Below, one piece after another: positions 2,601 to 47,741 of a stretch of 64,000 bases of DNA. The translations under genes were made by a program, and so were the position numbers. The notes under the pieces were generated by a model. It made no database searches. It was not told where the DNA came from and worked only from the letters and a program-made list of their open reading frames with translations. The DNA comes from a virus, in the IMG/VR virus record IMGVR_UViG_3300047585_000208, positions 1-64,000 of that record; one strand, given 5' to 3'. Position 1 is the first letter of the stretch, and the number at the start of each line of letters is the position of its first letter.

Positions 2601-2909
2601 ATGGCAATCCCCACAGTAGCGCCGAAGATGCTAAAAAGCAAAAACTTTATGGACGCAGTGTCAGAATTTAAGGCTAAGTTTGACAACGAGAAAAAGAAAA
2701 TTAATGAGGCAAGGGCAAAAATTAAATCGGTGATTGGGCCAGCTTTAATTAAACAGGCAAAAGAAGCGCATAAACAGCTTGACAAAGCTCTACAGGATCT
2801 AAGAGATCTGGGAACTGCCCTAGATGGCTATATCGAGGAACTTGAAGCACAGGCAGATGACTTTGAGGAATCTTTAGAGGCGCTTAAAGACAACTCACTT
2901 TGTAATTAG
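2601..2909 (+). CDS. coiled-coil hypothetical protein
   Basis: AAGGA RBS before ATG 2601; heptad-rich sequence. Confidence 0.7.
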   Translation: MAIPTVAPKMLKSKNFMDAVSEFKAKFDNEKKKINEARAKIKSVIGPALIKQAKEAHKQLDKALQDLRDLGTALDGYIEELEAQADDFEESLEALKDNSLCN

Positions 2910-2972
2910 CCGATCATCGGCCAATCGTCTTTTGCTTAAAGACTTCCTTTCTTTTAGCACTGGAGAGTTCGC

Positions 2973-3173
2973 ATGAATACGATACTAGAGCAGTACACTG
3001 CGATTGCATCAGTCAACACGCCAATCGGTCGCGAGCAATTTGTCAAAGATATTGTGTCGTGGATTGAAATAGAGTGGGAAAGCCGAGATGGTCGAGAAGT
3101 CCTCACAGATAGTCGGGCGACCAAGTCACTTAAACAAGCATTACACAGGTGGGTAGAAGAAGCGGCGCTTTAG
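2973..3173 (+). CDS. hypothetical protein (3' half duplicated at about 3526-3640)
   Basis: GGAG RBS. Confidence 0.65.
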   Translation: MNTILEQYTAIASVNTPIGREQFVKDIVSWIEIEWESRDGREVLTDSRATKSLKQALHRWVEEAAL

Positions 3174-3287
3174 CCGCTCCTACTGTAACCTGTCCTCGGC
3201 AGAGGCGTTATATCTGCCTTACATACAGTCTGGCTAGTGGGGTCTTTGCACCCCTGAAACTGTTTTGTAGATGCATGGAGCAAAGCG

Positions 3288-3533
3288 ATGAAGATTCTGT
3301 TGGTGCACAATGTGGGCGCTGGTTTGACCGAGAACATCGACGTTGCTGATAACTGCAATATCAAGTCGGTTATCGAATCTCGGCCTGAGCTAAATGGTTT
3401 TAACTTGTCCCGCGTCAGGATAGTCGTTCGTCGGTTGACGAATGGCCAGATTGCTTCCATTTCGGACGTGAATGGCTTCACGCCGCTGCATGAGGGTGAT
3501 CGTCTCACCTTGAATCCTGCGAGACTGGATTGA
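3288..3533 (+). CDS. ubiquitin-like (beta-grasp) protein, copy 1, lacking C-terminal Gly
   Basis: Clear paralog of 3804..4064; ends NPARLD-stop at the duplication junction. Confidence 0.75.
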   Translation: MKILLVHNVGAGLTENIDVADNCNIKSVIESRPELNGFNLSRVRIVVRRLTNGQIASISDVNGFTPLHEGDRLTLNPARLD

Positions 3534-3803
3534 GCTTGAGTGGGAAAGCCGAGACGGACAAGCCATTCCTACAGATAGTCTAGCGACCAAGTCACTTAAA
3601 CAAGCATTACACAGGTGGGTAGAAGAAGCGGCACTGTAATCGCTCCTACTTGCCTATATTGAGCCATGCTCTCTCGTTCGAAGCTGTAACTTGTCCTCGG
3701 CAGAGGCGTTATATCTGCCTTACATACAGTCCGATTAGCGGAGCCGCTAATCGTGGGGTCTTTGCACCCCTGAAACTGTTTTGTAGATGCATGGAGCAAA
3801 GCG

Positions 3804-4064
3804 ATGAAGATTCTGTTGGTGCACAATGTGGGCGCGGGCGTGACTGAGAATATCAATGTCACTGATAGCAGCACTATCAAGTCCGTTATTGAATCTCGGC
3901 CGGAATTGAACGGGTTTAACCTGACCCACTTCAAGATGACTGTTCGCCGGCTGGTGAATGGCCAAATCACTCCGATCCCGGATGTGAACGGCTATACAAA
4001 CCTGCGCGAAGGCGACCGTCTCACCTTGAATCCCGCGAAACTCGAAGGCGCCTTCGCCGCCTAA
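3804..4064 (+). CDS. ubiquitin-like (ThiS/MoaD/Ub beta-grasp) modifier
   Basis: L(R)EGDRLTL C-terminal strand motif; KLEG followed by an AFAA tail; lies upstream of E2, JAB and E1 genes. Confidence 0.8.
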   Translation: MKILLVHNVGAGVTENINVTDSSTIKSVIESRPELNGFNLTHFKMTVRRLVNGQITPIPDVNGYTNLREGDRLTLNPAKLEGAFAA

Positions 4065-4158
4065 TCGGGTGAACCCTAATTGAAAACGACCGCCTCGGCG
4101 TAGGCTTTTATACGCCGTGTCTTTATTGCCCCCTAATTGAGCACAAGGGAGCGCTATT

Positions 4159-5634
4159 TTGTCTGACTTGCGTAGTATATTCCGCGCTGCCAAACGAATT
4201 CAGGAATCGCTACTTAAAACAAAATTTAGGCTGGCCTTTTCTGAGCTTAACATTCGAGTAGCTGACGCGACTCGGGGACTTCATGTAACAAAGTCAATTT
4301 TGGCTGGTAACGTGAAAAAGCAGCGCTTCGAAAAGTACACTGTAAAAAGGCTAACAAATTATCTCGACACTCTTTTAAACGCTATTGCTACGACTCGAAC
4401 AGTGTTATCGCAAGAGGGGCTTAAGAATGCCGAGATTCCGACGCTACGATTTATCGTTGAAGAGCTGCTTCACTCCGCATACGAGTTTAAAGGCCTGAAT
4501 GTCCATCTGGGTAACCGCCCAGGACAAACACCGACTTTGAGGCCGTACGTCAGCATAGTTACAGAACCGATTGTGCTTGAAAAAGTTCCACTTGGTCGAT
4601 TCGAGCTTCAGATTTTCACTGATACGTTAACGCAACATAACTTTACAGAAAACGTTGAAAGGTCCATTCACGCGGTTGCGCTTGACGCAAATCTGTCTTA
4701 TAAGCGCCAGTTTCCTCATCCGCACATTGATACTAGCGGCAACATATGCACGGGGGAGGGTAAAGCGCTTATTGCGCGATCGCTGCGAGAGGGTCGATTT
4801 TCAGACGCCTTTCAGCTATTGCACAGCGTTTTAAACTCTTACAACGCAAGAAGCGCCTATCAGACTATTGAGACCTGGCAGGGGGTCCGAAAAACTTGTG
4901 TGGCCTGCGGTCAAACTGAGTACGAAGAGGAAATGGTGCTGTGCCCAAGGTGCCGAACCATTCGATACTGTGCTAACTGCGTGTCTATTTGTAAAGGTTG
5001 CAGGTGTTCAACTTGTCCACAATGCTTTGTTGCATGTCGAAACTGTACAGAACCGTCATGTCTTAATTGCCGACGAAATTGTAACAGTTGCGCCCTAAGC
5101 GGGTGTGCAACATGTGTCTTTACGTGCGATCGCTGCCTCAGAGGAACTTGTAAAACGTGTCAATCGATTATTACAAACACGTGTGGGCACAATGTTTGCT
5201 CTGCTTGTGCAATAGTTTGTCTTAGTTGTAACACGATGTATTGCGCAAGCTGTAGCAAGTTTAAAATCAGCAACTGTGTAACTTGCCTGAAGCCTTGTTG
5301 TACTAAATGCGGCACAAGAAGGCCTGGGTCAAGTAACCGTACGCATACAGTTTGTCCTACTTTGATAACGCCAGTTTTACCAAGGCCCGCGCCACAACTA
5401 CAAGAGGTAGTTTTTTTTAATGCGGAGAACTTTGGTCTAGTACCGATTACAACTCCAGAACCGATAACAGAGTTACAAGCAGTTTTAGGAACTCCGATAC
5501 CTGCTAGGCTTATTGAGACCGCAGCCGAAGACTTTGATGATGAAGACGACGAAAACGACGATGATGACGAAGTTGAAAATGACGAAGACTTTGACGATGA
5601 AGATGATGAGGAGGATGACGATGAGATCGGCTAA
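4159..5634 (+). CDS. prokaryotic E2 (UBC-fold) protein with CxxC array and acidic tail
   Basis: HPHIDTSGNICTG active-site-like motif; about 16 CxxC; poly-D/E C-terminus. Confidence 0.75.
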   Translation: MSDLRSIFRAAKRIQESLLKTKFRLAFSELNIRVADATRGLHVTKSILAGNVKKQRFEKYTVKRLTNYLDTLLNAIATTRTVLSQEGLKNAEIPTLRFIVEELLHSAYEFKGLNVHLGNRPGQTPTLRPYVSIVTEPIVLEKVPLGRFELQIFTDTLTQHNFTENVERSIHAVALDANLSYKRQFPHPHIDTSGNICTGEGKALIARSLREGRFSDAFQLLHSVLNSYNARSAYQTIETWQGVRKTCVACGQTEYEEEMVLCPRCRTIRYCANCVSICKGCRCSTCPQCFVACRNCTEPSCLNCRRNCNSCALSGCATCVFTCDRCLRGTCKTCQSIITNTCGHNVCSACAIVCLSCNTMYCASCSKFKISNCVTCLKPCCTKCGTRRPGSSNRTHTVCPTLITPVLPRPAPQLQEVVFFNAENFGLVPITTPEPITELQAVLGTPIPARLIETAAEDFDDEDDENDDDDEVENDEDFDDEDDEEDDDEIG

Positions 5635-5676
5635 TAACCTTAAGTTGAGTAATACATTACTCAAAAGGAAGGAATT

Positions 5677-6651
5677 ATGACAGATCCAAATGTTTTACAA
5701 GCAGCTGTTGAGCTTTTTCTTGGCAAAACGCTTGGGCCAGCAGATTTAGTAGTTAACTCGCTCATCGAATTCGAGAAGGATTATGCGCGAGCAATCAAGG
5801 CATCAAAGGCCTACCGCAGGCTTTTAGCTACCCCGGGAAAAATTGGACCGTTTGAAAAGGTTAAACGCGTTTTATCGCGGTCTGTGTTTTGTCGACAAAA
5901 TTATTCGGTGCCTTATAGGAATATCATCGCCGTTAAGCATTCGGATACGACTGCTTTGACCGCTGAGGCACTTTTAGCCGAGATGGTACAGATTTCAATT
6001 GAGTTTGCCAATTTCGGTGTTAAAAACTCGTCGTCGCGTAAGTACATCTTTGCGGACACTCCTCCAATTACCCTTAAAGGTGTTGAACTCGGCTCGTTTC
6101 AGCTTCGAATTTCTAAGGGTCGGTGTTTAAGCGCACATGCTATTACGCCGAATAAAGCTGTATACGGGAACGAACTAATCCGTAATCTCACACATCCACA
6201 CGTATGTGACAATAAGGTCTGTTTAGGCGAAGCCCAAAGCTTAGTGCACAGAGCTCTAAACGATTTAAGGTTGGCAGACGTCTTTCAGCTCGCACACTCT
6301 GTGCTTACGACTTATTCCGCGGTGTCGGCTTATCGAAAGCTAGATCACTGGACGACGGCTATTAGGCACTGTTTTAATTGCGGAAGTACCCACTATAACT
6401 CGACAGAAAAACAGTGTACTGATTGTCTACGGTTTCCTTGTTTACAGTGCATTACGGATATTAAGGGCTGTATTGAGTGTCGGCGCATAACTTGTTTTAC
6501 CTGCGGTGGTTGGCAAACGTGCTCAGTTTGTCAATGTAGAATTTGTTTAACTTGCAGTAAATCATTCACACCGACAAAAATTTGTCAAAATTGTCTTCAA
6601 AAGCCTCCAACTAAACCCAGAAGGAGAAAAGCTGCTGTGCCGGTAGCATAA
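5677..6651 (+). CDS. prokaryotic E2 paralog 2 with CxxC array
   Basis: LGSFQL...HPHVCDNKVCLG...LTTYS..SAY..L..W; 8 CxxC. Confidence 0.75.
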   Translation: MTDPNVLQAAVELFLGKTLGPADLVVNSLIEFEKDYARAIKASKAYRRLLATPGKIGPFEKVKRVLSRSVFCRQNYSVPYRNIIAVKHSDTTALTAEALLAEMVQISIEFANFGVKNSSSRKYIFADTPPITLKGVELGSFQLRISKGRCLSAHAITPNKAVYGNELIRNLTHPHVCDNKVCLGEAQSLVHRALNDLRLADVFQLAHSVLTTYSAVSAYRKLDHWTTAIRHCFNCGSTHYNSTEKQCTDCLRFPCLQCITDIKGCIECRRITCFTCGGWQTCSVCQCRICLTCSKSFTPTKICQNCLQKPPTKPRRRKAAVPVA

Positions 6652-6687
6652 CAAGGCTTATGCCTTTCTTTCGTAAAGGAATAACTC

Positions 6688-7650
6688 ATGATCACAGCTG
6701 ATGGAATTTACCTTCAGGCTGCCGGCTGGTTTAAAGCGCCCGTCGCTGACATTATTTGTGATTTTCAGCAGTTATCCCAATCCTTTGATGACTTTGAAAT
6801 AAACCTTGTCGATAAGACCATCAGTGTGGTAACCAAGTTTATTGAGATGGAAAAGATTAGGCTTGGCCGATTTCGCCTAACAATGAGGACAGCCGATATA
6901 CAGCTAGGTATCCAAGTTGTGACATCGTTGTTTAGCGTTAAGGCCTTAGACCCAAATCCACCCAGCCGCGATAAGCTTATTTTTCATCCAAACATCAATT
7001 TTCAAGGAAATGTTTGTCTTGGCTATAATGCCCAAGCAGTACTTAGTAAAATAATGGCCGATTTTCGCATTGCTGACGCTTTTGAATTGATTAATACGAT
7101 TATGCACAGCTCCAGCGCTGGGCACGGCTACGTTAAATTACAAAACTGGGTAACTCAACCCGTAGTTTGCGCTGATTGTGCTTTTAAAGAAGAACAAGCG
7201 CAGGCGCAGCGCTGCACCGGTTGTCCAACTTACTTTTGCAAACGATGCATTAATAAATGCGCTTGCGGCGGCGTTACGTGCCAGAAGTGCGTTAAGCCTT
7301 GTAAGAACTGTGGCATTAACCATTGTCAAGTTTGTCCGAAAAGTTGTGAAGGCTGCAAGAAGAAATTTTGTCCGTCTTGCACGAAAACTTGCAAAAGCTG
7401 CCCAGCCGACACTTGCGAGAATTGCCAGCTTGTTTGTGCAGTTTGCGAAGTTTTTGGTTGTAAAGCTTGTACCGTTGCGACAGAGTTGTCAAAACGGCAC
7501 TGCCACGACACTTGTACAACACAGTGTGTACGTTGTGGTCAGATTTACGCAGATGATGAATCGCCCAGCAATGTTTGTGTATCGTGTCTTGAAGAAGAGG
7601 CCATACGCGATGAGCCAAGTATTGAAGTTCAGTCCGCTAGCATGGCATAA
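6688..7650 (+). CDS. prokaryotic E2 paralog 3 with CxxC array
   Basis: FHPNINFQGNVCLG matches the canonical UBC HPN-x7-C pattern; about 14 CxxC. Confidence 0.8.
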   Translation: MITADGIYLQAAGWFKAPVADIICDFQQLSQSFDDFEINLVDKTISVVTKFIEMEKIRLGRFRLTMRTADIQLGIQVVTSLFSVKALDPNPPSRDKLIFHPNINFQGNVCLGYNAQAVLSKIMADFRIADAFELINTIMHSSSAGHGYVKLQNWVTQPVVCADCAFKEEQAQAQRCTGCPTYFCKRCINKCACGGVTCQKCVKPCKNCGINHCQVCPKSCEGCKKKFCPSCTKTCKSCPADTCENCQLVCAVCEVFGCKACTVATELSKRHCHDTCTTQCVRCGQIYADDESPSNVCVSCLEEEAIRDEPSIEVQSASMA

Positions 7651-10600
7651 ATTGCAATACATGTGCCATCTCGGTGATACCGAGGTGGGCGGATTCGGTA
7701 TTTCAAAACCAGTGAAGTTGACCCACGGAACTGTCGTTCCTGAGAATTATTTCTACATCGAGGATTTTAAACTCGTTAAACAGCGCTCGACTTATGCCTT
7801 TGTTAAATTCACGGACGAAGGTATTGACGAGCACATGACTTACTGTGTGGACAATGAGATCGACCTTCAGCGCGGCATGAGAATCTGGATTCACACTCAT
7901 CCAGGCCAATCTGCACAGCCATCCTTCACTGATGAAAACACCTTTAAAGACCAAGACAGCCTAGGTCAGTGCGACTGGGCTGTGATGTTCATTTTGTCTC
8001 GAACTAACGAAACTTATGCTCGTTTACGTTTTTCAGCCGGTCCTGGCGGTCAGATTATGCTTCCTGTTGAAATTGATTGGTCCACAGTAAAAGAGAGCAT
8101 TAGGACATTTGCAAATAATATTGATGCGTACGACGCTGAATATGCTCGCTGCGTTGAGAAATCTTCCTACAGCACGGGATATGCACCGTATGGGGGAGGT
8201 GTGTCTTCGGACAAAAATTTTCCCCGTCACGCGTGGGAAAGAAATCACGCAAGCGAAAGCGGCGTCGGCACAAGCACCGTGCACGGTAAGTTTGATGACC
8301 ATGGACTCGCCTATGAAAACCGCCTCGTTAGGCATCCGAGCTCGCTTAATCGCTTGCCTCAGCAAAGTCAAGAGCCTGTTATTGCTACGCCAGCGCCCAA
8401 TACCATAAGGCTTTATCTCATTTACAACCAGATGACCAAGCAATACGGGTTTTACAAGAAAGAAGAAATTAAGAACGCGGCCATCCTCGTAAGATCACAG
8501 GGGATGAAGTTGCTTAATCGCGGAAGTTGGGACTTTCCCGATAACATCGAAGAGCGATTGGCAAAAGAAGGTAAAAAGCTTCCAAAGTTCAATTTTGAAG
8601 AAGAAGCAGAAGCTATTACTTGGGCGTCGACTAACGGAGAAAAAGTCGATCCGCACCAGCACGCTAAAACTTGCCCGTGCGAGAAGTGCTGGGAGTCGTT
8701 TAAACCAGGTAATTCAGTCAGAAAGCAGCAACTTCACCTTGTCATGCTAAAGTTAGCTAGGCGCTATGAGTTCAGAGACGCTACACAGATGATTGAACTC
8801 GATAATAGCGATCTCAGCTATGACGATTTTGGTACTTGGGAATTTGACGAAATTATCAAGACATTCCCGACTTGGGATATCCAAGATGGCAGTGGAGCTT
8901 ATTTCAGGGCAACTGATTGGGCTAATAAACACGGACGAAAGGTATTAACTACTCAAACGGTTAAGGCAATTGAGTCATCAAAGGGCTGGTTAGAGGCTGA
9001 TCGGTATTATCTGACCTGGATTCCGACTGTCAGTCAGTTTCAATTCTTGTCGTATGACCAGCTTTGTGAGACTTGGCACCATGTGGTCGAAGATGAAACT
9101 TCTTGGCCAATAGTTAAGAGCAATTGGTACATTAAGCCAGACAGCCTTCCAAATATCCAGAGCTGGCAAGCCGCTGAAGAAGAAGTTGCGCACAGTTGGG
9201 GTCGTGCCCATGGTGAACTGATTGGCAATACCGGTAATTACGATCCGTTTAGAGGCGGTTACGAAGCAGCCAAAACGGCTAAAGAAACTCTGACAGTTAA
9301 TACGGACATGCGTCGGCTTTTTCTGACTTACGATCCAATTTTCAAAGACTATTGTTTCATTAACGAAACAATTCTTAATACTCGTTGGCAAACTTGTTGC
9401 ACAAAGTCGCTTCATCCGCCAGCCGTGCACAGTAGCTGGGATATTCCGGTTTCGATAAATGAAACTGCTTTGAAGTGGACTAAAGACGAACTCGATGAGG
9501 CTATTGCCTGGGGTCGGCGATTCGGCACTGAGATTACAGAAGTTGGCAATTACGATCCTTGTAAGTTTAGACATACTAACAGCTCTAGCGCCACTATTAC
9601 TAAGCTCTTTCTGACTTATCGTGGCGCATTTGACGATTATGCTTTTCTGACAGACGGCCAGCTTAAGGATTATTGGGTGCGTTGGCAACATATGCCGAAT
9701 CAGCATCCAAAGGTCAACAGTGTTTGGGAAATCAGGGGTAACAGCAGCGTAACGCACGTTTACGGAAAAAGTCAATTGGTAGACGCCAGAATTTGGGCTA
9801 ACACCCACGGCAAATCTTTCTTTATGGACCCGCTTGATCCGTTTGAAGCCACGTACAAAAAGCCAGTTACCGTTGCGACAATCCCAGATTTACCGACAAT
9901 CCGATTTCTAACTTACAGCCCGATACTGCAGGATCACGAGCTTATCACTAATTCCATGCTTGAAGCTCGTTGGCGCAACAACGAAAAGAAACCACATCAT
10001 TATCCAGTTGTTGACAGCGTGTGGGATATGGCCGCGCCAGAGCATCCTAACGTAAACTGGCGGCGCTGGGCTAAAGATAAAATTGAAGATGCTAGAACCT
10101 TTTGTAAGGAAAACGGTAAACAAGTCATTACGGCTTGCGTTGACCCTTACCGCGAGTTTTACGAATTACCAACTAAGCCAAAAGCGAGTTACCCTACACT
10201 CGTAAACCCAATTAGTTACTATTTGACTTGGTTGCCAGTTCGAGTAGAGTTTAAGTTCTTGCTAGCAAACGACCTTATGGCGGCCAGCGGCACAAAGGGT
10301 GTGTATGCCCCGACTGTTATCTCCGTTTGGTTGTTTAGTGAAAGTCGAAAGCTGTCTTTAAGCGTCACTACGTTCTCTAAAGCCGAAACTGCGGAAGACT
10401 GGGCTAATGAAAATGGTGTTTGCATTAAAGCCATTTCAACCGAAGAAGCTTTAATCGAAGCTAAAACAGCGCTAAGTTCTGGAGCGCAAGTCTCTACTGA
10501 AGTTGTTCTAGTAAAACCGGAAATTACTGCGGCTATTGACGAAGCGTTATCTGCCCCCATAACCCCCGCTACTTCGACGACAGCTGGACCCTCGTCAGTC

Positions 10601-11179
10601 GATCTGGGTGGCGATATTCAGTTGTTTTATTTGGCTTGGGTTCCAGCTCAGCAAACTTTCAAATTTCTATCGCCACAAGAAATTATTGACATTTGCACCG
10701 ATTCAGGCCAAAATGACCCGCACATCCGAAGTAGCTGGATCTTTAGCACAGTTTATTACGGAACCCTTTTAGACTACAGCGTCGACGAATATGAATTAGC
10801 CGAGAATTACGGCAAAGAACACGGGGAATTTTATGAATTTTGCACTTTAAAGGAAGCGCTTCCAGAGAGCATCATGATTGTTGAGTCTATTGACAAAGAA
10901 GCAGCTGAAGCGCTTATACTCGCAGGGTTAGACGACACCTTTGCGGAAGAGTACTTAAAAACGCTTGACAAAGCTGAGGCTGAGGAAAAGCCTAAGGTTG
11001 TCGGGCTTTTACCCTATGTCCCAGAAAAGGAACCAGAAAATGCAAACAATGGAAGCATCAACGATGTCGGAATTAAAGGCGAAGTTGCCGCCGGTCATGG
11101 ACTCGACACCGGCTGCGGCTTTGGAGGAGGGTACGGCAGCCCAAACTCCCAATGGGGTCCCGGCTACGAATACGACTAA
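7610..11179 (+). CDS. JAB/MPN+ metallo-isopeptidase with long C-terminal repeat region
   Basis: TEVGGFG (catalytic Glu) and WIHTHPGQSAQPSFTD (HxH-x7-S-xx-D). Likely start ATG 7610. Confidence 0.85.
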   Translation: MSQVLKFSPLAWHKLQYMCHLGDTEVGGFGISKPVKLTHGTVVPENYFYIEDFKLVKQRSTYAFVKFTDEGIDEHMTYCVDNEIDLQRGMRIWIHTHPGQSAQPSFTDENTFKDQDSLGQCDWAVMFILSRTNETYARLRFSAGPGGQIMLPVEIDWSTVKESIRTFANNIDAYDAEYARCVEKSSYSTGYAPYGGGVSSDKNFPRHAWERNHASESGVGTSTVHGKFDDHGLAYENRLVRHPSSLNRLPQQSQEPVIATPAPNTIRLYLIYNQMTKQYGFYKKEEIKNAAILVRSQGMKLLNRGSWDFPDNIEERLAKEGKKLPKFNFEEEAEAITWASTNGEKVDPHQHAKTCPCEKCWESFKPGNSVRKQQLHLVMLKLARRYEFRDATQMIELDNSDLSYDDFGTWEFDEIIKTFPTWDIQDGSGAYFRATDWANKHGRKVLTTQTVKAIESSKGWLEADRYYLTWIPTVSQFQFLSYDQLCETWHHVVEDETSWPIVKSNWYIKPDSLPNIQSWQAAEEEVAHSWGRAHGELIGNTGNYDPFRGGYEAAKTAKETLTVNTDMRRLFLTYDPIFKDYCFINETILNTRWQTCCTKSLHPPAVHSSWDIPVSINETALKWTKDELDEAIAWGRRFGTEITEVGNYDPCKFRHTNSSSATITKLFLTYRGAFDDYAFLTDGQLKDYWVRWQHMPNQHPKVNSVWEIRGNSSVTHVYGKSQLVDARIWANTHGKSFFMDPLDPFEATYKKPVTVATIPDLPTIRFLTYSPILQDHELITNSMLEARWRNNEKKPHHYPVVDSVWDMAAPEHPNVNWRRWAKDKIEDARTFCKENGKQVITACVDPYREFYELPTKPKASYPTLVNPISYYLTWLPVRVEFKFLLANDLMAASGTKGVYAPTVISVWLFSESRKLSLSVTTFSKAETAEDWANENGVCIKAISTEEALIEAKTALSSGAQVSTEVVLVKPEITAAIDEALSAPITPATSTTAGPSSVDLGGDIQLFYLAWVPAQQTFKFLSPQEIIDICTDSGQNDPHIRSSWIFSTVYYGTLLDYSVDEYELAENYGKEHGEFYEFCTLKEALPESIMIVESIDKEAAEALILAGLDDTFAEEYLKTLDKAEAEEKPKVVGLLPYVPEKEPENANNGSINDVGIKGEVAAGHGLDTGCGFGGGYGSPNSQWGPGYEYD

Positions 11180-11921
11180 GCCAGAACTTACCAGAAATTC
11201 CCGTCAGCGAGACATCATCCCACCCGCCAAGCTCGCTGAGGTACATGCCCTGGTCATCGGTGTTGGCGCAGTCGGTCGGCAGGTGGCTTTAATGCTTGCC
11301 GCTGTCGGTACTCCAGAAGTAAGTATTTACGACGACGACATTGTTGCGATCGAGAATCTCGGTCCTCAAGCTTACTTCCAACAAGATATTAATATCCCGA
11401 AGGTTGTTGCGACCAAAGAGTTGATGAGGTTAGTCAATCCAGACATTACTTGCACAGCAAAGCAAGACCGGTTCAAGCGGTCGACGGAGTTTAAGGTCAA
11501 AGATGGGCGGCAGCTTTGCGTTTTCTGTTGCGTTGACGATATCGAGGTTCGAAAACTCCTTTGGGAGCGCCTCAAGGATCAAATTGATTTCTGGGTCGAT
11601 GGCCGAATGTCCGCAGAGATTTACGAAGTTTTGAGCGTCAATACGCCTCGCGAAGAGAAGGCGCTGGCCAAGATCAAAACCGAGAACTTGTTTACGACTT
11701 TTCGGGAGATCAAGTACAAGCCTTACGAAGATACCTTCTTTGCGAAGAATGAGGCATTCCCGGTTTCCTGTACTGCAAAATCGACTGTATTTACTGCCAA
11801 CATCTGCGCCGGCAACATGATTCAGCCGTGGTCAATGTATCTGCGTGGCGTGTCCACGGAAGATGAACTTGATGCGATCGAGTCGCACAAAGTGCTGATG
11901 AAGGCGGCTAAAGCCGAATAG
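11040..11921 (+). CDS. ThiF/MoeB-family E1-like activating enzyme
   Basis: SRQ, VIGVGAVG, DDDIV..ENL..Q, PKV, CCVDD...R, DGRM and candidate catalytic Cys in SCTAK. AAGGA RBS before ATG 11040. Confidence 0.9.
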   Translation: MQTMEASTMSELKAKLPPVMDSTPAAALEEGTAAQTPNGVPATNTTKPELTRNSRQRDIIPPAKLAEVHALVIGVGAVGRQVALMLAAVGTPEVSIYDDDIVAIENLGPQAYFQQDINIPKVVATKELMRLVNPDITCTAKQDRFKRSTEFKVKDGRQLCVFCCVDDIEVRKLLWERLKDQIDFWVDGRMSAEIYEVLSVNTPREEKALAKIKTENLFTTFREIKYKPYEDTFFAKNEAFPVSCTAKSTVFTANICAGNMIQPWSMYLRGVSTEDELDAIESHKVLMKAAKAE

Positions 11922-11995: not shown

Positions 11996-12904
11996 ATGAC
12001 GTTACCTTCTGGAACATCTCAAACTTATCTTTGGCCTGGCACAACCAGGGTCGAAGATGTCCCACTGCCGGCAAAGATCAAGGCAGTGGCATGTTCACAA
12101 GGTACAAACCCAAATCTTGGCTGGACTTTCTTAGATCAACAAGGTAAGCCTGTTGATATTTCTGATTTGCTCGCTCAGAGCTATACTTGTCAAGTCCGTA
12201 TGCGAGAAGCTGCCTTTTTGCACACCACCGAACCACCGACCATAATCAACTGCACTGTTATAACCCCAACAGAAGACGCAGCGCCAACAACCTCGATAAC
12301 AGCGCTGCTCCCGACTACTGCAACAGCCTGGAATCAGATCCTTCTGGCTGAATGGGCAGTATTGTCCCCTGCGGGCGTTCCGGCCTTTACGAACCTAGAG
12401 TACGTCTGGGTTGAAGCTGGCCAATACGCCCAACAGGTCAATTTTTACGGAACACCGTCGGTTCAAGACCTCCGGATGATCGTTCGCGATGTGTCTAGAG
12501 ATGGAAATCTCTGGCTCAAGAACTTCGAATACGACCTTAGCGACTTTGCCTGGAGTATTATTAGGTGTGTTCAGGAATTCCAAGAATCGCTTCCGCCGAT
12601 TAACAATTTCTATTCCACCAAGACATTCCCCTTCAGAAATAACCTCATGACCGGGGTAGCGGCTTATCTAATGCAAATTCAAGCTACTTGGTATAGGCGT
12701 GTACATTTGCCTTATCAAGCTGCAGGAATTTCTTTGGATGATAAAGCTAAATTTGCTGAATACACTAATGAGTCGCAAAGACTAATGAGCGATTGGAAAA
12801 AGTGGATGCAGCTTAAAAAAGTTCAGCTCAATGCCGACGGAGCGTATCAAAGCTTTGGCAGCGCATACGGAGAAGGCGCGTATGGCGGCTATGGTGGTTG
12901 GTGA
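11996..12904 (+). CDS. putative head-tail adaptor or neck protein
   Basis: Pattern ..PP...Y....FP.......G......Y.A.GIS.DDK; sits at the start of the virion gene block. Confidence 0.45.
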   Translation: MTLPSGTSQTYLWPGTTRVEDVPLPAKIKAVACSQGTNPNLGWTFLDQQGKPVDISDLLAQSYTCQVRMREAAFLHTTEPPTIINCTVITPTEDAAPTTSITALLPTTATAWNQILLAEWAVLSPAGVPAFTNLEYVWVEAGQYAQQVNFYGTPSVQDLRMIVRDVSRDGNLWLKNFEYDLSDFAWSIIRCVQEFQESLPPINNFYSTKTFPFRNNLMTGVAAYLMQIQATWYRRVHLPYQAAGISLDDKAKFAEYTNESQRLMSDWKKWMQLKKVQLNADGAYQSFGSAYGEGAYGGYGGW

Positions 12905-12928: not shown

Positions 12929-13825
12929 ATGCCAGAACAAATCCATTCAATCGATCCTTATGGGCTTAATCCTTTTACGCGAGTAACGGTAGATTACTCC
13001 TTTCGCAATACAACTCGCATCTACTGGGAGTACCAACCCCTCTTTAACGACATTCCTGTTTACAGTATTCAAGTGCAGGTTGCCGAGGTAGATAATCCTA
13101 ATGCGACCTGGACAAATGTTGGAGCTCCTATAGTCGGAACCAACATCCGCTTTATAACCAACGACGAGCTTGGACTAGAGAGTGGGAAAGAGTTGACATT
13201 GTTCTTTAGAGTCGTTCTTACAGCTGCTCCAGGCCCAGGCCCCGAAAACCGTCCAGGTAACATCTATATCTCTCCTACTGCAGGAGTCTTTGGCAATTTA
13301 CCTCCTTTTACTTGGGGGTTATTTCAAGAGATCGTCAGAAAAGAATATCTGCGCTTTGCTTTACTCGGAGTAGCTAATCAGGGCTATCTTTTACAAGAAA
13401 AGCGCTCTGGACCTCTTTGCCCCCTTTGTATTGACCAGTTAACTGGCGAGTGTATAGATTCGGATTGCCCTTCTTGCTGCGGTACTCGCTTCGAGGGTGG
13501 GTTTTGGCCAGGGATTGAAAACTTCTGGTTTGACAGCGAGCCTTTTGGGCATTTCCCGAATATGGACCAGCAAATGCGCGGCACTATTGATGACGATGAA
13601 GTTACAACTGCTCGTGTTATTGCTAATCCTTATTGCACGGCTCGTGATGTTGTTGTCGATCTAACGTCAGATAGGCGCTTTAGGGTAAGGAAAGTAGAAA
13701 CACTGGCGCAATTTCGGATGGTCCCGATTGTGTCGCGAATAACCCTTAAAGAGGCACCATTTTCCGACGCTATCTATAAATTTCCTGTTCCGGCTATTTG
13801 CCCTAGCCAGTGCGATTTTGAGTAA
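12929..13825 (+). CDS. putative neck/head-closure protein with Zn finger
   Basis: G.LCPLC.D......CPSCCGT.F.GG motif followed by a beta-barrel-like C-terminus. Confidence 0.5.
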   Translation: MPEQIHSIDPYGLNPFTRVTVDYSFRNTTRIYWEYQPLFNDIPVYSIQVQVAEVDNPNATWTNVGAPIVGTNIRFITNDELGLESGKELTLFFRVVLTAAPGPGPENRPGNIYISPTAGVFGNLPPFTWGLFQEIVRKEYLRFALLGVANQGYLLQEKRSGPLCPLCIDQLTGECIDSDCPSCCGTRFEGGFWPGIENFWFDSEPFGHFPNMDQQMRGTIDDDEVTTARVIANPYCTARDVVVDLTSDRRFRVRKVETLAQFRMVPIVSRITLKEAPFSDAIYKFPVPAICPSQCDFE

Positions 13826-13848
13826 TGCATTACTCAAAAGGAGAAGCA

Positions 13849-14073
13849 ATGATATATGCAGGGTTCAAGTATGCTGGTACTAAAGATGGTACTGGTTATG
13901 GTGATATTAGTGGAACCGTAAACGGATCCGCAAGAGAATACTATGGTACAACCCCAGACGACTCAGTTCAATACGGTGGTAACGCTCAAGGGTGGGGTGA
14001 GCGCTCCGGAACCGGGAGTGGCGCTGAAAATTGGATAGTTCGACTTAATGGTCACAACAGACTTCAGAAATAA
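13849..14073 (+). CDS. Gly-rich mini-protein
   Basis: Palindrome plus AAGGAG before ATG 13849. Confidence 0.65.
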   Translation: MIYAGFKYAGTKDGTGYGDISGTVNGSAREYYGTTPDDSVQYGGNAQGWGERSGTGSGAENWIVRLNGHNRLQK

Positions 14074-46847: not shown

Positions 46848-47741
46848 ATGCGAAAAGCGTTTACGCTCATCGAGATGCTGGTCGTCATTGCGATCATCGC
46901 CATCCTGATGGGGCTATTACTCCCGGCTATCCAGTACGCCAGAACAGCTGCGGCGTATACTCAAACGTCGAACAATCTCAAGAACATCGGATTATCTGGG
47001 ATCAACTTCCACGGAATGTACAAATTCCTTCCGTACAACGGTACGTCAACAAGCGCGACTTGGACGCTCTGGACACCCCAAGCGCCGAACAACTGGGCTA
47101 ATAGCCTAGATGTTGAATCTGGTTCTTGGTGTTTCGCGCTATTACCGTTTATGGATCAAAGGCAACTTTGGCAGCAGGTTGTACCGCCACCTAATGTGCC
47201 CACGCCAACGAGCGCTACACTGACTTACTGGCAGCCGCCTAACACAATCGCGTCAACTGTTTTGGCGGTGTTTAATGACCCAGAACGCAACCGAACAGGA
47301 ACGTATGTTTACGGCTCTAACATCCTCGCTTCGACGGATTATGCCATAAACACCTGGGTCAATTCTCCTACTGGCACGCTCAACGATCCTGACGCGCGAT
47401 TGACGCTGCTTGGCATCCGGGATGGTACCAGCAATACAATCTTCGCTGGAATAGCGGGGATGGCGTCGGCTGATTACCGTAACGCGTTTCCAAGCCAGTG
47501 GAATCAGACTTGGTGGCTTGGCGGACTCGGCGGCTCTGGTCGAAATTCAACCGTTCTCCAACCGGACGGCGCTACAACGGCATCGGCAGCTGGTCAGTGG
47601 GGCGGCCCATATCCTGGAGCTTGCCCATTCGTCTTCTGCGACGGCTCAGTCAGATCGATTGGATATGGGCTAATTACAGGCACACAGCTTCAGGCGCTCA
47701 TGACACCCAATGGAAACGATCAGGCGCCTTCAATACCGTAA
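46848..47741 (+). CDS. DUF1559-family prepilin-type N-terminal cleavage/methylation protein
   Basis: [30 protein letters not shown]...NNLK.IGL; SW...LLPFMDQ; IRDGTSNT; F.DGSVR. Confidence 0.92.

Follow-up and report, generated by a model that had tools for sequence, protein, structure and literature searches.

A phage-borne cassette of putative ubiquitin-like conjugation genes with three E2-type paralogs fused to CxxC arrays

We analysed the first 64 kb (hereafter the window) of a 137,890-base virus record, IMG/VR IMGVR_UViG_3300047585_000208 (CheckV completeness 67%), in which genes for ubiquitin-like proteins (Ubls), E2-type conjugating enzymes, a JAB peptidase and an E1-type activating enzyme follow one another in the order Ubl, Ubl, E2, E2, E2, JAB, E1. 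The locus is of a known kind, the prokaryotic Ubl-E2-JAB-E1 operon as in Bil; its phage-borne and expanded form is new. Very probably it is a genuine cassette for Ubl conjugation whose three E2 paralogs are under constraint. We judge the odds evenly balanced that the locus is, as its sequence suggests, an expanded version, carried by a phage, of a so far unnamed cassette of four genes (Ubl, E2 with CxxC array, JAB and E1) and operates as the cascade proposed below, and we suggest more tentatively that the arrays, together with the tails behind them, choose partners or act in an E3-like manner.

The three E2 genes and their active sites, the latter read from the translations, are as follows.

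4159..5634, plus strand: E2-1, 491 amino acids (aa); N-terminal helical part 1-101, core 102-246, array 247-384, tail 385-491
4747-4749, plus strand: codon of Cys197, active site of E2-1 with HPH187-189
5677..6651, plus strand: E2-2, 324 aa; N-terminal part 1-87, core 88-231, array 232-306, tail 307-324
6220-6222, plus strand: codon of Cys182, active site of E2-2 with HPH173-175
6688..7650, plus strand: E2-3, 320 aa; core 15-160, array 161-300, tail 301-320
7015-7017, plus strand: codon of Cys110, active site of E2-3 with HPN100-102, 'IFHPNINFQGNVCL'

An earlier note on this DNA had described three divergent E2 paralogs with a shared core and a candidate catalytic cysteine, and this description held. 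The open reading frames (ORFs) lie where it had placed them, their cores of ~145 residues align at 27-35% pairwise identity, and the residues it had listed (T, I, LG.F.L, A, N, HP, C.G, R..D.F.L, A...Y and W) are among the invariants of the three cores. The cysteine is present in all three (C197, C182 and C110), placed 8, 7 and 8 residues past the third residue of HPH, HPH and HPN, respectively. A profile made from the three cores and run against 1.84 billion representatives matched 1708 clusters (defined at 50% identity) at E≤1e-3 and 883 at E≤1e-10, and the core and the cysteine columns are kept across a 142-sequence family alignment, which takes the paralogy beyond chance. All three phage E2s keep 9 of the 9 positions that are invariant in a 47-sequence alignment of family cores; the H, P and C of the HP...Cys site are invariant in both alignments. 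The top core-profile match in the representative library (P0001) was E2-2 itself. The family, whose core signature is THPHV-x4-LC-x-G-[DE], is annotated as 'hypothetical protein' in its sources, and no Pfam or NCBIfam model matched it above cut-off. A typical member of ~350 aa consists of an N-terminal helical part of ~95 aa, the core and ~10 CxxC motifs; E2-3 has no counterpart of the N-terminal part that most members carry.

Pfam, with UQ_con and the Prok-E2 families included, returned no match at E≤0.1 for the three E2s, and no model above its cut-off for 14 family members. Against the sequences of the PDB, the three-core profile gave 21 weak matches (E 0.22-2), every one of them at the HPN...Cys motif; 19 are named ubiquitin- or NEDD8-conjugating enzymes or ubiquitin-conjugating (UBC) cores, and the remaining two, named L3A2-1, aligned at the positions of UBE2L3. 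In UBC12, for instance, the stretch aligned with the profile consensus 'klifhPhidtdgnvCl' is 'KKIFHPNIDLKGNVCL'. AlphaFold2 produced an unusable model of E2-3 from the single sequence (pLDDT 30.8) and, with the 142-sequence family alignment, a model with a mean pLDDT of 83.9 and a pTM of 0.64, containing a helix at 19-32, strands within 35-67 and helices at 112-139. The ranked list that Foldseek returned for this model consisted almost entirely of UBC E2s (best E 0.012, probability ≤0.98, target TM ≤0.51). VIA-align against 48,161 representatives gave UBE2S (1zdn_A) as the best match (Z 7.5, root-mean-square deviation (rmsd) 3.7, 127 residues aligned); among the matches listed, those over residues 1-158 were UBC, UEV or RWD folds or relatives of these, and the bacterial BubB complex (9eav_D, Z 5.9) was one of the matches. 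Applied to the top 997 chains from Foldseek, VIA-align gave 237 chains at Z≥5, with 7ahf_A as the best (Z 7.8, 124 aligned, rmsd 3.7), and 50 of the 50 rows listed were UBC or UEV. A fold search of BFVD returned only cysteine-rich look-alikes of low TM (0.07-0.28). Since the matches are uniform, span the whole core and agree with the motif, a UBC fold of the E2 core is supported at the level of a moderate match to the model.

The JAB and E1 genes follow directly.

7610..11179, plus strand: JAB/JAMM peptidase protein, 1189 aa if ATG 7610 is the start; overlaps the end of E2-3
8402-10930, plus strand: eight repeats of ~100 aa each in the JAB protein (residues 265-1107), pattern LFLTY...YxF...SxW.I...WA..HG
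10965..11921, plus strand: E1, a ThiF-type single adenylation domain; longest ORF from TTG 10965, homologous part from ~11181

The N-terminal JAMM domain of the JAB protein has an intact motif in its translation, HTHPGQSAQPSFTD. It matched Prok-JAB at E 0.0039 (Pfam, below cut-off), the JAB model of PADLOC at 0.0017, and the JAB proteins of the bacterial cassettes described below at values down to 2.6e-39 (phmmer). Its repeats are absent from those bacterial proteins and found no match in Pfam or the ESM Atlas. The E1 matched Pfam ThiF at 3.9e-20 and the cassette E1s at values down to 2.8e-51 (phmmer). It keeps the nucleotide loop GVGAVGRQVA (GVGAxGRQVA), FCCVD, DGRM and the cysteine of G-x-CTA ('SCTAKST'), which are conserved across 42 bacterial E1s; the CTA cysteine is the putative E1 thioester site. 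The earlier reading of E2-type proteins with one E1 is supported: UBC-fold cores with an intact HPN/HPH...Cys site lie beside one ThiF-type E1, JAB and Ubl genes. Neither was a separate E3 found, in agreement with the earlier reading; none of 43 ORFs in the window matched the RING, HECT or IBR models of Pfam (13 ORFs searched at E≤0.1, 30 at E≤0.001), and small ORFs of unassigned family remain.

Two Ubl genes, which together with the phage location had been absent from the earlier note, precede the E2 genes.

3063..4064, plus strand: tandem duplication delimited by alignment of the copies, copy 1 ~3063-3533 and copy 2 ~3535-4064
3288..3533, plus strand: Ubl-1, 81 aa, beta-grasp-type; ends ...NPARLD, then a TGA stop
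3804..4064, plus strand: Ubl-2, 86 aa; ends ...NPAKLE-G82-A83-FAA

Besides the Ubl gene, the duplicated unit contains a leader and the 3'-terminal part of the preceding gene (2973-3173). Ubl-1 and Ubl-2 are 74% identical in protein and 77% in nucleotide sequence, with a synonymous divergence (dS) of ~1.0 and a ratio of nonsynonymous to synonymous divergence (dN/dS) of 0.14. Despite this coding dS, the leader (~180 nucleotides (nt), within 3063-3803) is nearly identical between the copies, with an exact 40-mer at 3191-3230 and 3692-3731, suggesting either a regulatory element under constraint or gene conversion acting locally. Rfam gave no match at E≤1 on 2900-4200, and the leaders folded no better than shuffled sequences (z 0.34 and -1.70). 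Of seven PDB matches to the Ubl profile, four were weak matches to MoaD/RnfH beta-grasp proteins (E 0.08-0.5); the other three, designed helical filaments, were taken as spurious.

The C-termini of the two Ubls differ at the residue on which conjugation would depend. Bacterial Ubls of the cassettes end in ..TP-x-K-I-E-G-A followed by 0 to ~35 residues, mostly fewer than 10, and several stop at GA. Ubl-2 has the family-like Gly-Ala (G82 and A83 are nearly invariant in the family) and then a short tail. In Ubl-1, which the earlier note had not reported as lacking its glycine, the TGA sits at the position of the family's invariant Gly (window 3531-3539; ..ARLD-TGA-GCT-TGA versus ..AKLE-G-A), and Ubl-1 read through this TGA aligns up to residue 83 of Ubl-2. 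The phage uses TGA as an ordinary stop, at the end of 10 of 38 genes, and Ubl-1 as written is thus without the conjugation residue; judged by its sequence it could be non-conjugatable, or conjugatable solely through read-through. A genome-wide reading of TGA as Gly (table 25) was rejected on the same 10 genes, several of which have the next start 8-50 nt on. As a separate observation, some bacterial cassettes encode head-to-tail di-Ubl fusions (L018:2287-2772, L133:7463-8092 and L137:3582-4082) in which ..KIEGAA runs directly into the next Ubl, an arrangement that resembles a polyubiquitin precursor.

The window encodes a large terminase (9.8e-47), a tail-fibre-type RNA ligase, a Baseplate J protein and a GpJ-like tail protein. 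The cassette genes all lie on the plus strand, with tail and baseplate genes just downstream, and the GC content of the locus (0.447-0.460) falls at the low end of the range of the window (0.447-0.514). From the terminase, Baseplate J protein, RNA ligase and matching GC, and from its deposition in IMG/VR as a virus, we infer that the cassette belongs to the phage. The phage also encodes a DUF1559 protein with an N-terminal methylation motif (N-methyl, pilin-like; 46848-47741). The DUF1559 family is expanded in Planctomycetes, and the protein hints at a host among the Planctomycetota.

Outside the phage, the E2-array proteins occur in a four-gene cassette with a single E2. Scanning one genome per species yielded 52 loci, 51 in Planctomycetota lineages and one in a metagenome-assembled genome (MAG) of the Bdellovibrionaceae; since the scan patterns were derived from Planctomycetota sequences and are biased to that phylum, a restriction to it is not claimed. 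All four genes in the order Ubl-E2-JAB-E1 were found in 38 of the 52 loci (phmmer), with a Ubl of 72-80 aa, a JAB protein of ~270 aa and an E1 of ~220 aa, and the other 14 end at a contig edge or miss one match. No second E2 was found in any of the 52. Likewise, each of the 18 metagenome loci whose sequence extends 3.5 kb or more upstream of E1 has exactly one E2, with one Ubl domain in 16 and a di-Ubl fusion in two. The arrays are thus a standard C-terminal part of single-E2 cassettes and did not evolve to divide specificity among three E2s; in this respect the earlier reading is corrected.

The bacterial cassettes are patchily distributed (of 201 genomes sampled from the phylum, the core profile matched 7) and can be present in several copies per genome, with 2, 2 and 3 matches in three genomes and 3 loci from single MAGs. 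Next to them lie integrases, recombinases, DUF2958, DUF3150 and AAA ATPases. DUF2958 (11 loci), a CDC48/PAN-like AAA ATPase (9), a tyrosine integrase (9) and DUF4230 (6) recur as neighbours, and two single-cassette IMG/VR contigs carry large serine recombinases, an AAA ATPase, DUF3150 and DUF2924; the recurrence of these genes suggests that the bacterial cassettes ride an integrative mobile element. Two genomes illustrate the multiple copies: in Planctomicrobium sp. SH661 (G001, locus L036; C1:3527480-3554010), a pair of E2-array genes on opposite strands is separated by 26 kb, and in another (G002) two copies with identical scores at 693 kb and 1138 kb suggest a duplicated element. The AAA ATPase, a classical one of ~500 aa, recurs beside the bacterial cassettes with DUF3150 and DUF2958 and is closest to the CDC48, PAN and IteA models, below their cut-offs (L038:4068-5576, L056:6194-7687, L057:15259-16836 and others); going by its sequence, it might serve the tagging system as an unfoldase. 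PF00004 matched nothing in the phage record.

The arrays of the phage E2s are listed below, with CxxC counted as overlapping motifs.

4897-5310, plus strand: array of E2-1, 17 CxxC, net charge +9
6370-6594, plus strand: array of E2-2, 9 CxxC, net charge +4
7168-7587, plus strand: array of E2-3, 14 CxxC, net charge +6

The 14 pairs reported before for E2-3 were borne out, and the ~16 and ~8 given for E2-1 and E2-2 are corrected to 17 and 9. The CxxC-x4-CxxC-x3 spacing also proved right, with gaps of 3 and 4 residues alternating in regular stretches, and so did the difference between the tails, which is acidic in E2-1 (107 aa, net -28) and basic in E2-2 (18 aa, net +6); the tail of E2-3 has 20 aa and a net charge of -5. 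Each phage array opens with CxxC-x11-CxxC-x4/5-CxxC and consists of 23-25% Cys with nearly no His. In 138 family arrays, the number of CxxC ranges from 6 to 16 (mode 10) with a median length of 81 aa, and the commonest gaps between motifs are 4 (425 cases), 3 (337) and 11 residues (167). Counts like the 17 and 14 of the phage are rare, as 13 or more occur in 4 of the 138. The array charge per 100 aa is +4.3 to +6.5 in the phage against a family median of -11.3, and is positive in 2 of 138 members. What is unusual in the phage is the E2 triplication, the array lengths and the reversed charge.

Within the family, column entropy is 0.51 bits for the array cysteines, 3.12 for the other array positions and 1.92 for the core, as in a rigid scaffold whose surface is free to vary; this fits a recognition module without proving it. 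The E2-3 model shows the array as short beta-hairpins in a row, with residues 250-276 at low confidence. In the comparison with zinc fingers that had been proposed earlier, the model segments 157-206 and 203-256 superpose on the fingers of Slp4, RIM and several FYVE proteins (Z 5.1-6.0, 48-54 residues, rmsd 2.4-3.3), which are two-zinc cross-brace fingers of the RING/PHD/FYVE class. No array passed the cut-off of any Pfam model: searched alone, 8 of 12 bacterial arrays gave a sub-threshold ANCHR-like B-box at E≤1 (best 1.2e-4, 22.5 bits versus a cut-off of 27), and one a sub-threshold IBR match (E 0.031). The opening spacing, CxxC-x11-CxxC-x4-CxxC-x3-CxxC, fits the B-box1 consensus. The ESM Atlas gave no usable match for the E2-3 array. 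From the sequences and the model, a role of the arrays as built-in E3s or adaptors is plausible.

In a tree of 73 cores, the three phage E2s lie on very long branches (1.6-2.5 substitutions per site), and a tree that holds them together was 58 log-likelihood units better than a quick free tree (approximately unbiased test p 0.97). Most likely, going by these sequences, the three arose through duplication in the phage lineage. E2-3 gave no tblastn match in 50,697 phage records; word-based homolog searches with E2-2 found only E2-2 itself and no viral locus; E1 alone and the neighbouring gene at 12929-13825 had no relatives in viral contigs, and E1 alone none in metagenome contigs. One representative protein, P0002 (733 aa), contains two complete units in tandem, each with an N-terminal part, an E2 core and a CxxC array, and E2 duplication, as a fusion, therefore occurs outside the phage too.

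The cascade that we propose would begin with the JAB peptidase, which would trim Ubl-2 past Gly82 and release AFAA. The short ThiF-type E1 would then adenylate Gly82 and load the Ubl onto the Cys of the 'CTA' motif in its crossover loop, from which the Ubl would be handed on to Cys197, Cys182 or Cys110 of the three E2 paralogs. Each E2 would conjugate it to lysines without a separate E3, its partner or target being picked by its differently charged tail and by a rigid zinc ladder, with roughly one Zn per two CxxC in consecutive B-box/FYVE-like two-zinc fingers of variable surface. The JAB protein might also remove the mark, and through the three E2s a single E1 would have three outputs. By analogy, the proximity of tail genes and the precedent of tail-fibre tagging by Bil make both virion-directed and anti-rival uses conceivable.

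Several results weigh against this cascade. First, the E2s and Ubls have no match in Pfam, PADLOC, PHROGs or NCBIfam. Second, Foldseek found no PDB match to the E2-3 model at E≤0.001, and all fold Z-scores are below 8, a range in which, according to the tool, a common arrangement alone may explain them. Third, the broader profile of 47 family cores matched no PDB sequence at E≤10, so that it is chiefly the phage copies, and E2-3 in particular, that resemble canonical E2s in sequence. Fourth, none of the three phage arrays matched Pfam at E≤1. Fifth, the very long branches of the phage E2s mean that long-branch attraction could mimic their clade. Sixth, the missing Gly of Ubl-1 indicates that part of the locus may be decaying. 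At last, the array is present in single-E2 cassettes everywhere, and its function may consequently be a common one, such as E1 docking, folding or assembly, rather than target choice.

This last point leads to the alternative that we regard as the most serious, if on balance unlikely: conjugation works, and the arrays are a common structural part instead of selectors, serving E1 docking, oligomer or higher-order assembly of the kind known from B-box proteins, or a zinc/redox switch, so that the three E2s would differ in timing, partner Ubl or regulation and not in target. Besides the family-wide array in one-E2 cassettes, the conserved opening module (CxxC-x11-CxxC-x4-CxxC) and Cys columns argue for it, as do the small size of the E1 (~220-270 aa), which has no ubiquitin-fold or other extra domain to hold an E2, and the reported operation of type II Bil without an E3. 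However, the non-Cys residues of the array are far more variable than the core, which is unexpected for docking to a conserved E1, the array length varies from 6 to 16 CxxC across the family, and the charge reversal in the phage copies suggests changed partners.

An improbable alternative is that the phage genes serve counter-defence, mimicking host cassettes (up to 3 per host) to jam or redirect them. Ubl-1 would then be a non-conjugatable decoy for the host E1 or E2, the enlarged JAB protein would strip host Ubl off phage proteins, and the E2s would match different host cassettes. Such a use would accord with the reported tagging of phage tail proteins by Bil systems, with several diverged cassettes per host genome, with the position of the phage cassette just upstream of tail and baseplate genes, and with a Ubl-1 that stops precisely at the Gly position yet has a dN/dS of 0.14. 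Decoys, however, need not keep what these proteins keep, namely the catalytic Cys and family invariants of the E2s and the motifs of the E1, and Ubl-2 is by its sequence fully conjugation-competent. Very improbable is a recently acquired host cassette with one functional E2, the other copies and Ubl-1 being decaying duplicates, for which the stop of Ubl-1 at the Gly position, the 27-35% identity of the paralogs and the lost N-terminal part of E2-3 could speak, but against which stand three intact ORFs of 320-491 aa, the full set of invariant core residues together with the array Cys columns, a GC content that matches the phage rather than a recent import, and a divergence whose depth without frame decay implies long selection.

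Among known systems, the proposed phage cascade and its bacterial relatives are closest in layout to BilABCD. Types I and II are reported to share with them the gene order Ubl-E2-JAB-E1, the absence of an E3 and a patchy, mobile distribution; in type II, whose operon has the order Ubl-E2-DUB-E1 (DUB, deubiquitinase), the JAB peptidase removes up to nine residues that lie behind a conserved Gly of the Ubl. The Gly and short tail of Ubl-2 parallel this arrangement, whereas Ubl-1 stops one residue before the Gly. In contrast, the E2s showed no sequence-level match to PADLOC or Pfam Prok-E2 models, nor the family profile to a solved chain, and they combine a classical HP[HN]...Cys site with a C-terminal CxxC array. 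The E1 here is a single domain of ~220-270 aa, while type II BilD is described as having an inactive and an active adenylation domain and a Cys domain. Only the present copy is set apart from Bil by being phage-borne and having three E2s and two Ubls. PADLOC gave no E2 match, and its only matches to the E1 were CBASS-type E1-E2 models (Bil models in that PADLOC release are unverified).

Operons of Ub, E1, E2, RING and Rpn11-like genes from Caldiarchaeum and some bacteria are reported to bring an E2 and a RING-type two-zinc finger together in one prokaryotic operon. Here, however, the zinc modules are fused to the E2 in ladders of 6-17 CxxC, the Ubl leans weakly to the MoaD/RnfH type, and the JAB protein is Prok-JAB/Cap3-like. 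According to a review that cites Burroughs et al. 2011, relatives of such operons are present in Planctomycetes, Actinobacteria and Acidobacteria, and the E2-CxxC family may be partly described in the paper cited. Iyer et al. 2006 suggested an E3-like adaptor role for a Zn-finger protein that is encoded separately in other Ubl operons of bacteria. The same source offers a precedent for a phage Ubl and JAB next to tail genes in lambda-type tail assembly, with a Ubl-like TAPI and a JAB-bearing TAPK; that system is described there without an E1, an E2 or a conjugation cascade.

Eukaryotic UBC E2s (UBE2S, UBE2L3, UBC12 and UBC13) match the E2 core with Z 7.0-7.8 over ~120-127 residues and have HPN followed by Cys 8 residues on, with 'IFHPNINFQGNVCL' of E2-3 aligning with 'KIFHPNIDLKGNVCL' of UBC12. 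They differ in that the identity is 10-19%, Pfam UQ_con is silent on the phage proteins, and the cysteine ladder is fused here. Array segments of the model superpose on two-zinc fingers of the B-box/FYVE/RIM/Slp kinds with a ligand pattern that would be compatible with four pairs, but the ligands here are all Cys, and there are up to 17 knuckles instead of 4.

A role of bacterial Ubl conjugation (Bil, Bub and CBASS Cap2) in phage defence was demonstrated only recently. In the literature searched, which lay outside subscription journals and supplements, no title or start of an abstract named a phage-borne Ubl-E1-E2 cassette, a multi-E2 version or a Planctomycetota E2-CxxC fusion. The phage is the first case we found with a complete cassette of the Ubl, E2-array, JAB and E1 type. 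The family behind it is large (the 1708 clusters), is matched above cut-off by none of the four libraries scanned, and always carries its classical HPN...Cys E2 fused to a ladder. One E1 with three E2s would make a natural test bed for E2 appendages that set specificity without an E3, and the set includes a Ubl paralog stopped exactly at the conjugation Gly. UBE2O and BIRC6 are E2/E3 hybrids. More speculatively, and improbably on balance, each phage E2 might likewise be an E2/E3 hybrid with a B-box/FYVE-like ladder that picks the target, so that one minimal E1 would feed three specificities, used offensively against host or rival-phage proteins or host cassettes, with Ubl-1 as an inhibitor or a read-through-regulated second modifier and the Planctomycetota fusion as a forerunner of the E2-RING pair. 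If the ladders were built-in E3s, they would bear on the origin of the eukaryotic E2-RING partnership; if the phage turned the system on host cassettes, this would be a new principle of counter-defence.

Further features surround the cassette. A scan for promoters and terminators gave results at chance level. Upstream of the cassette lie two small paralogous ORFs of unassigned family (935-1267, 110 aa, and 1494-1811, 105 aa). Several nearby proteins have Gly/Tyr-rich C-terminal tails (e.g. 11996-12904, 13825-14073 and the C-terminus of the JAB protein). At the start of the record, an ORF at 1-288 has Cys at every third residue (CSRCSDCSRCYDCSHCYRC...), resembling a short DNA tandem repeat, and its Cys pattern is unrelated to the E2 arrays.

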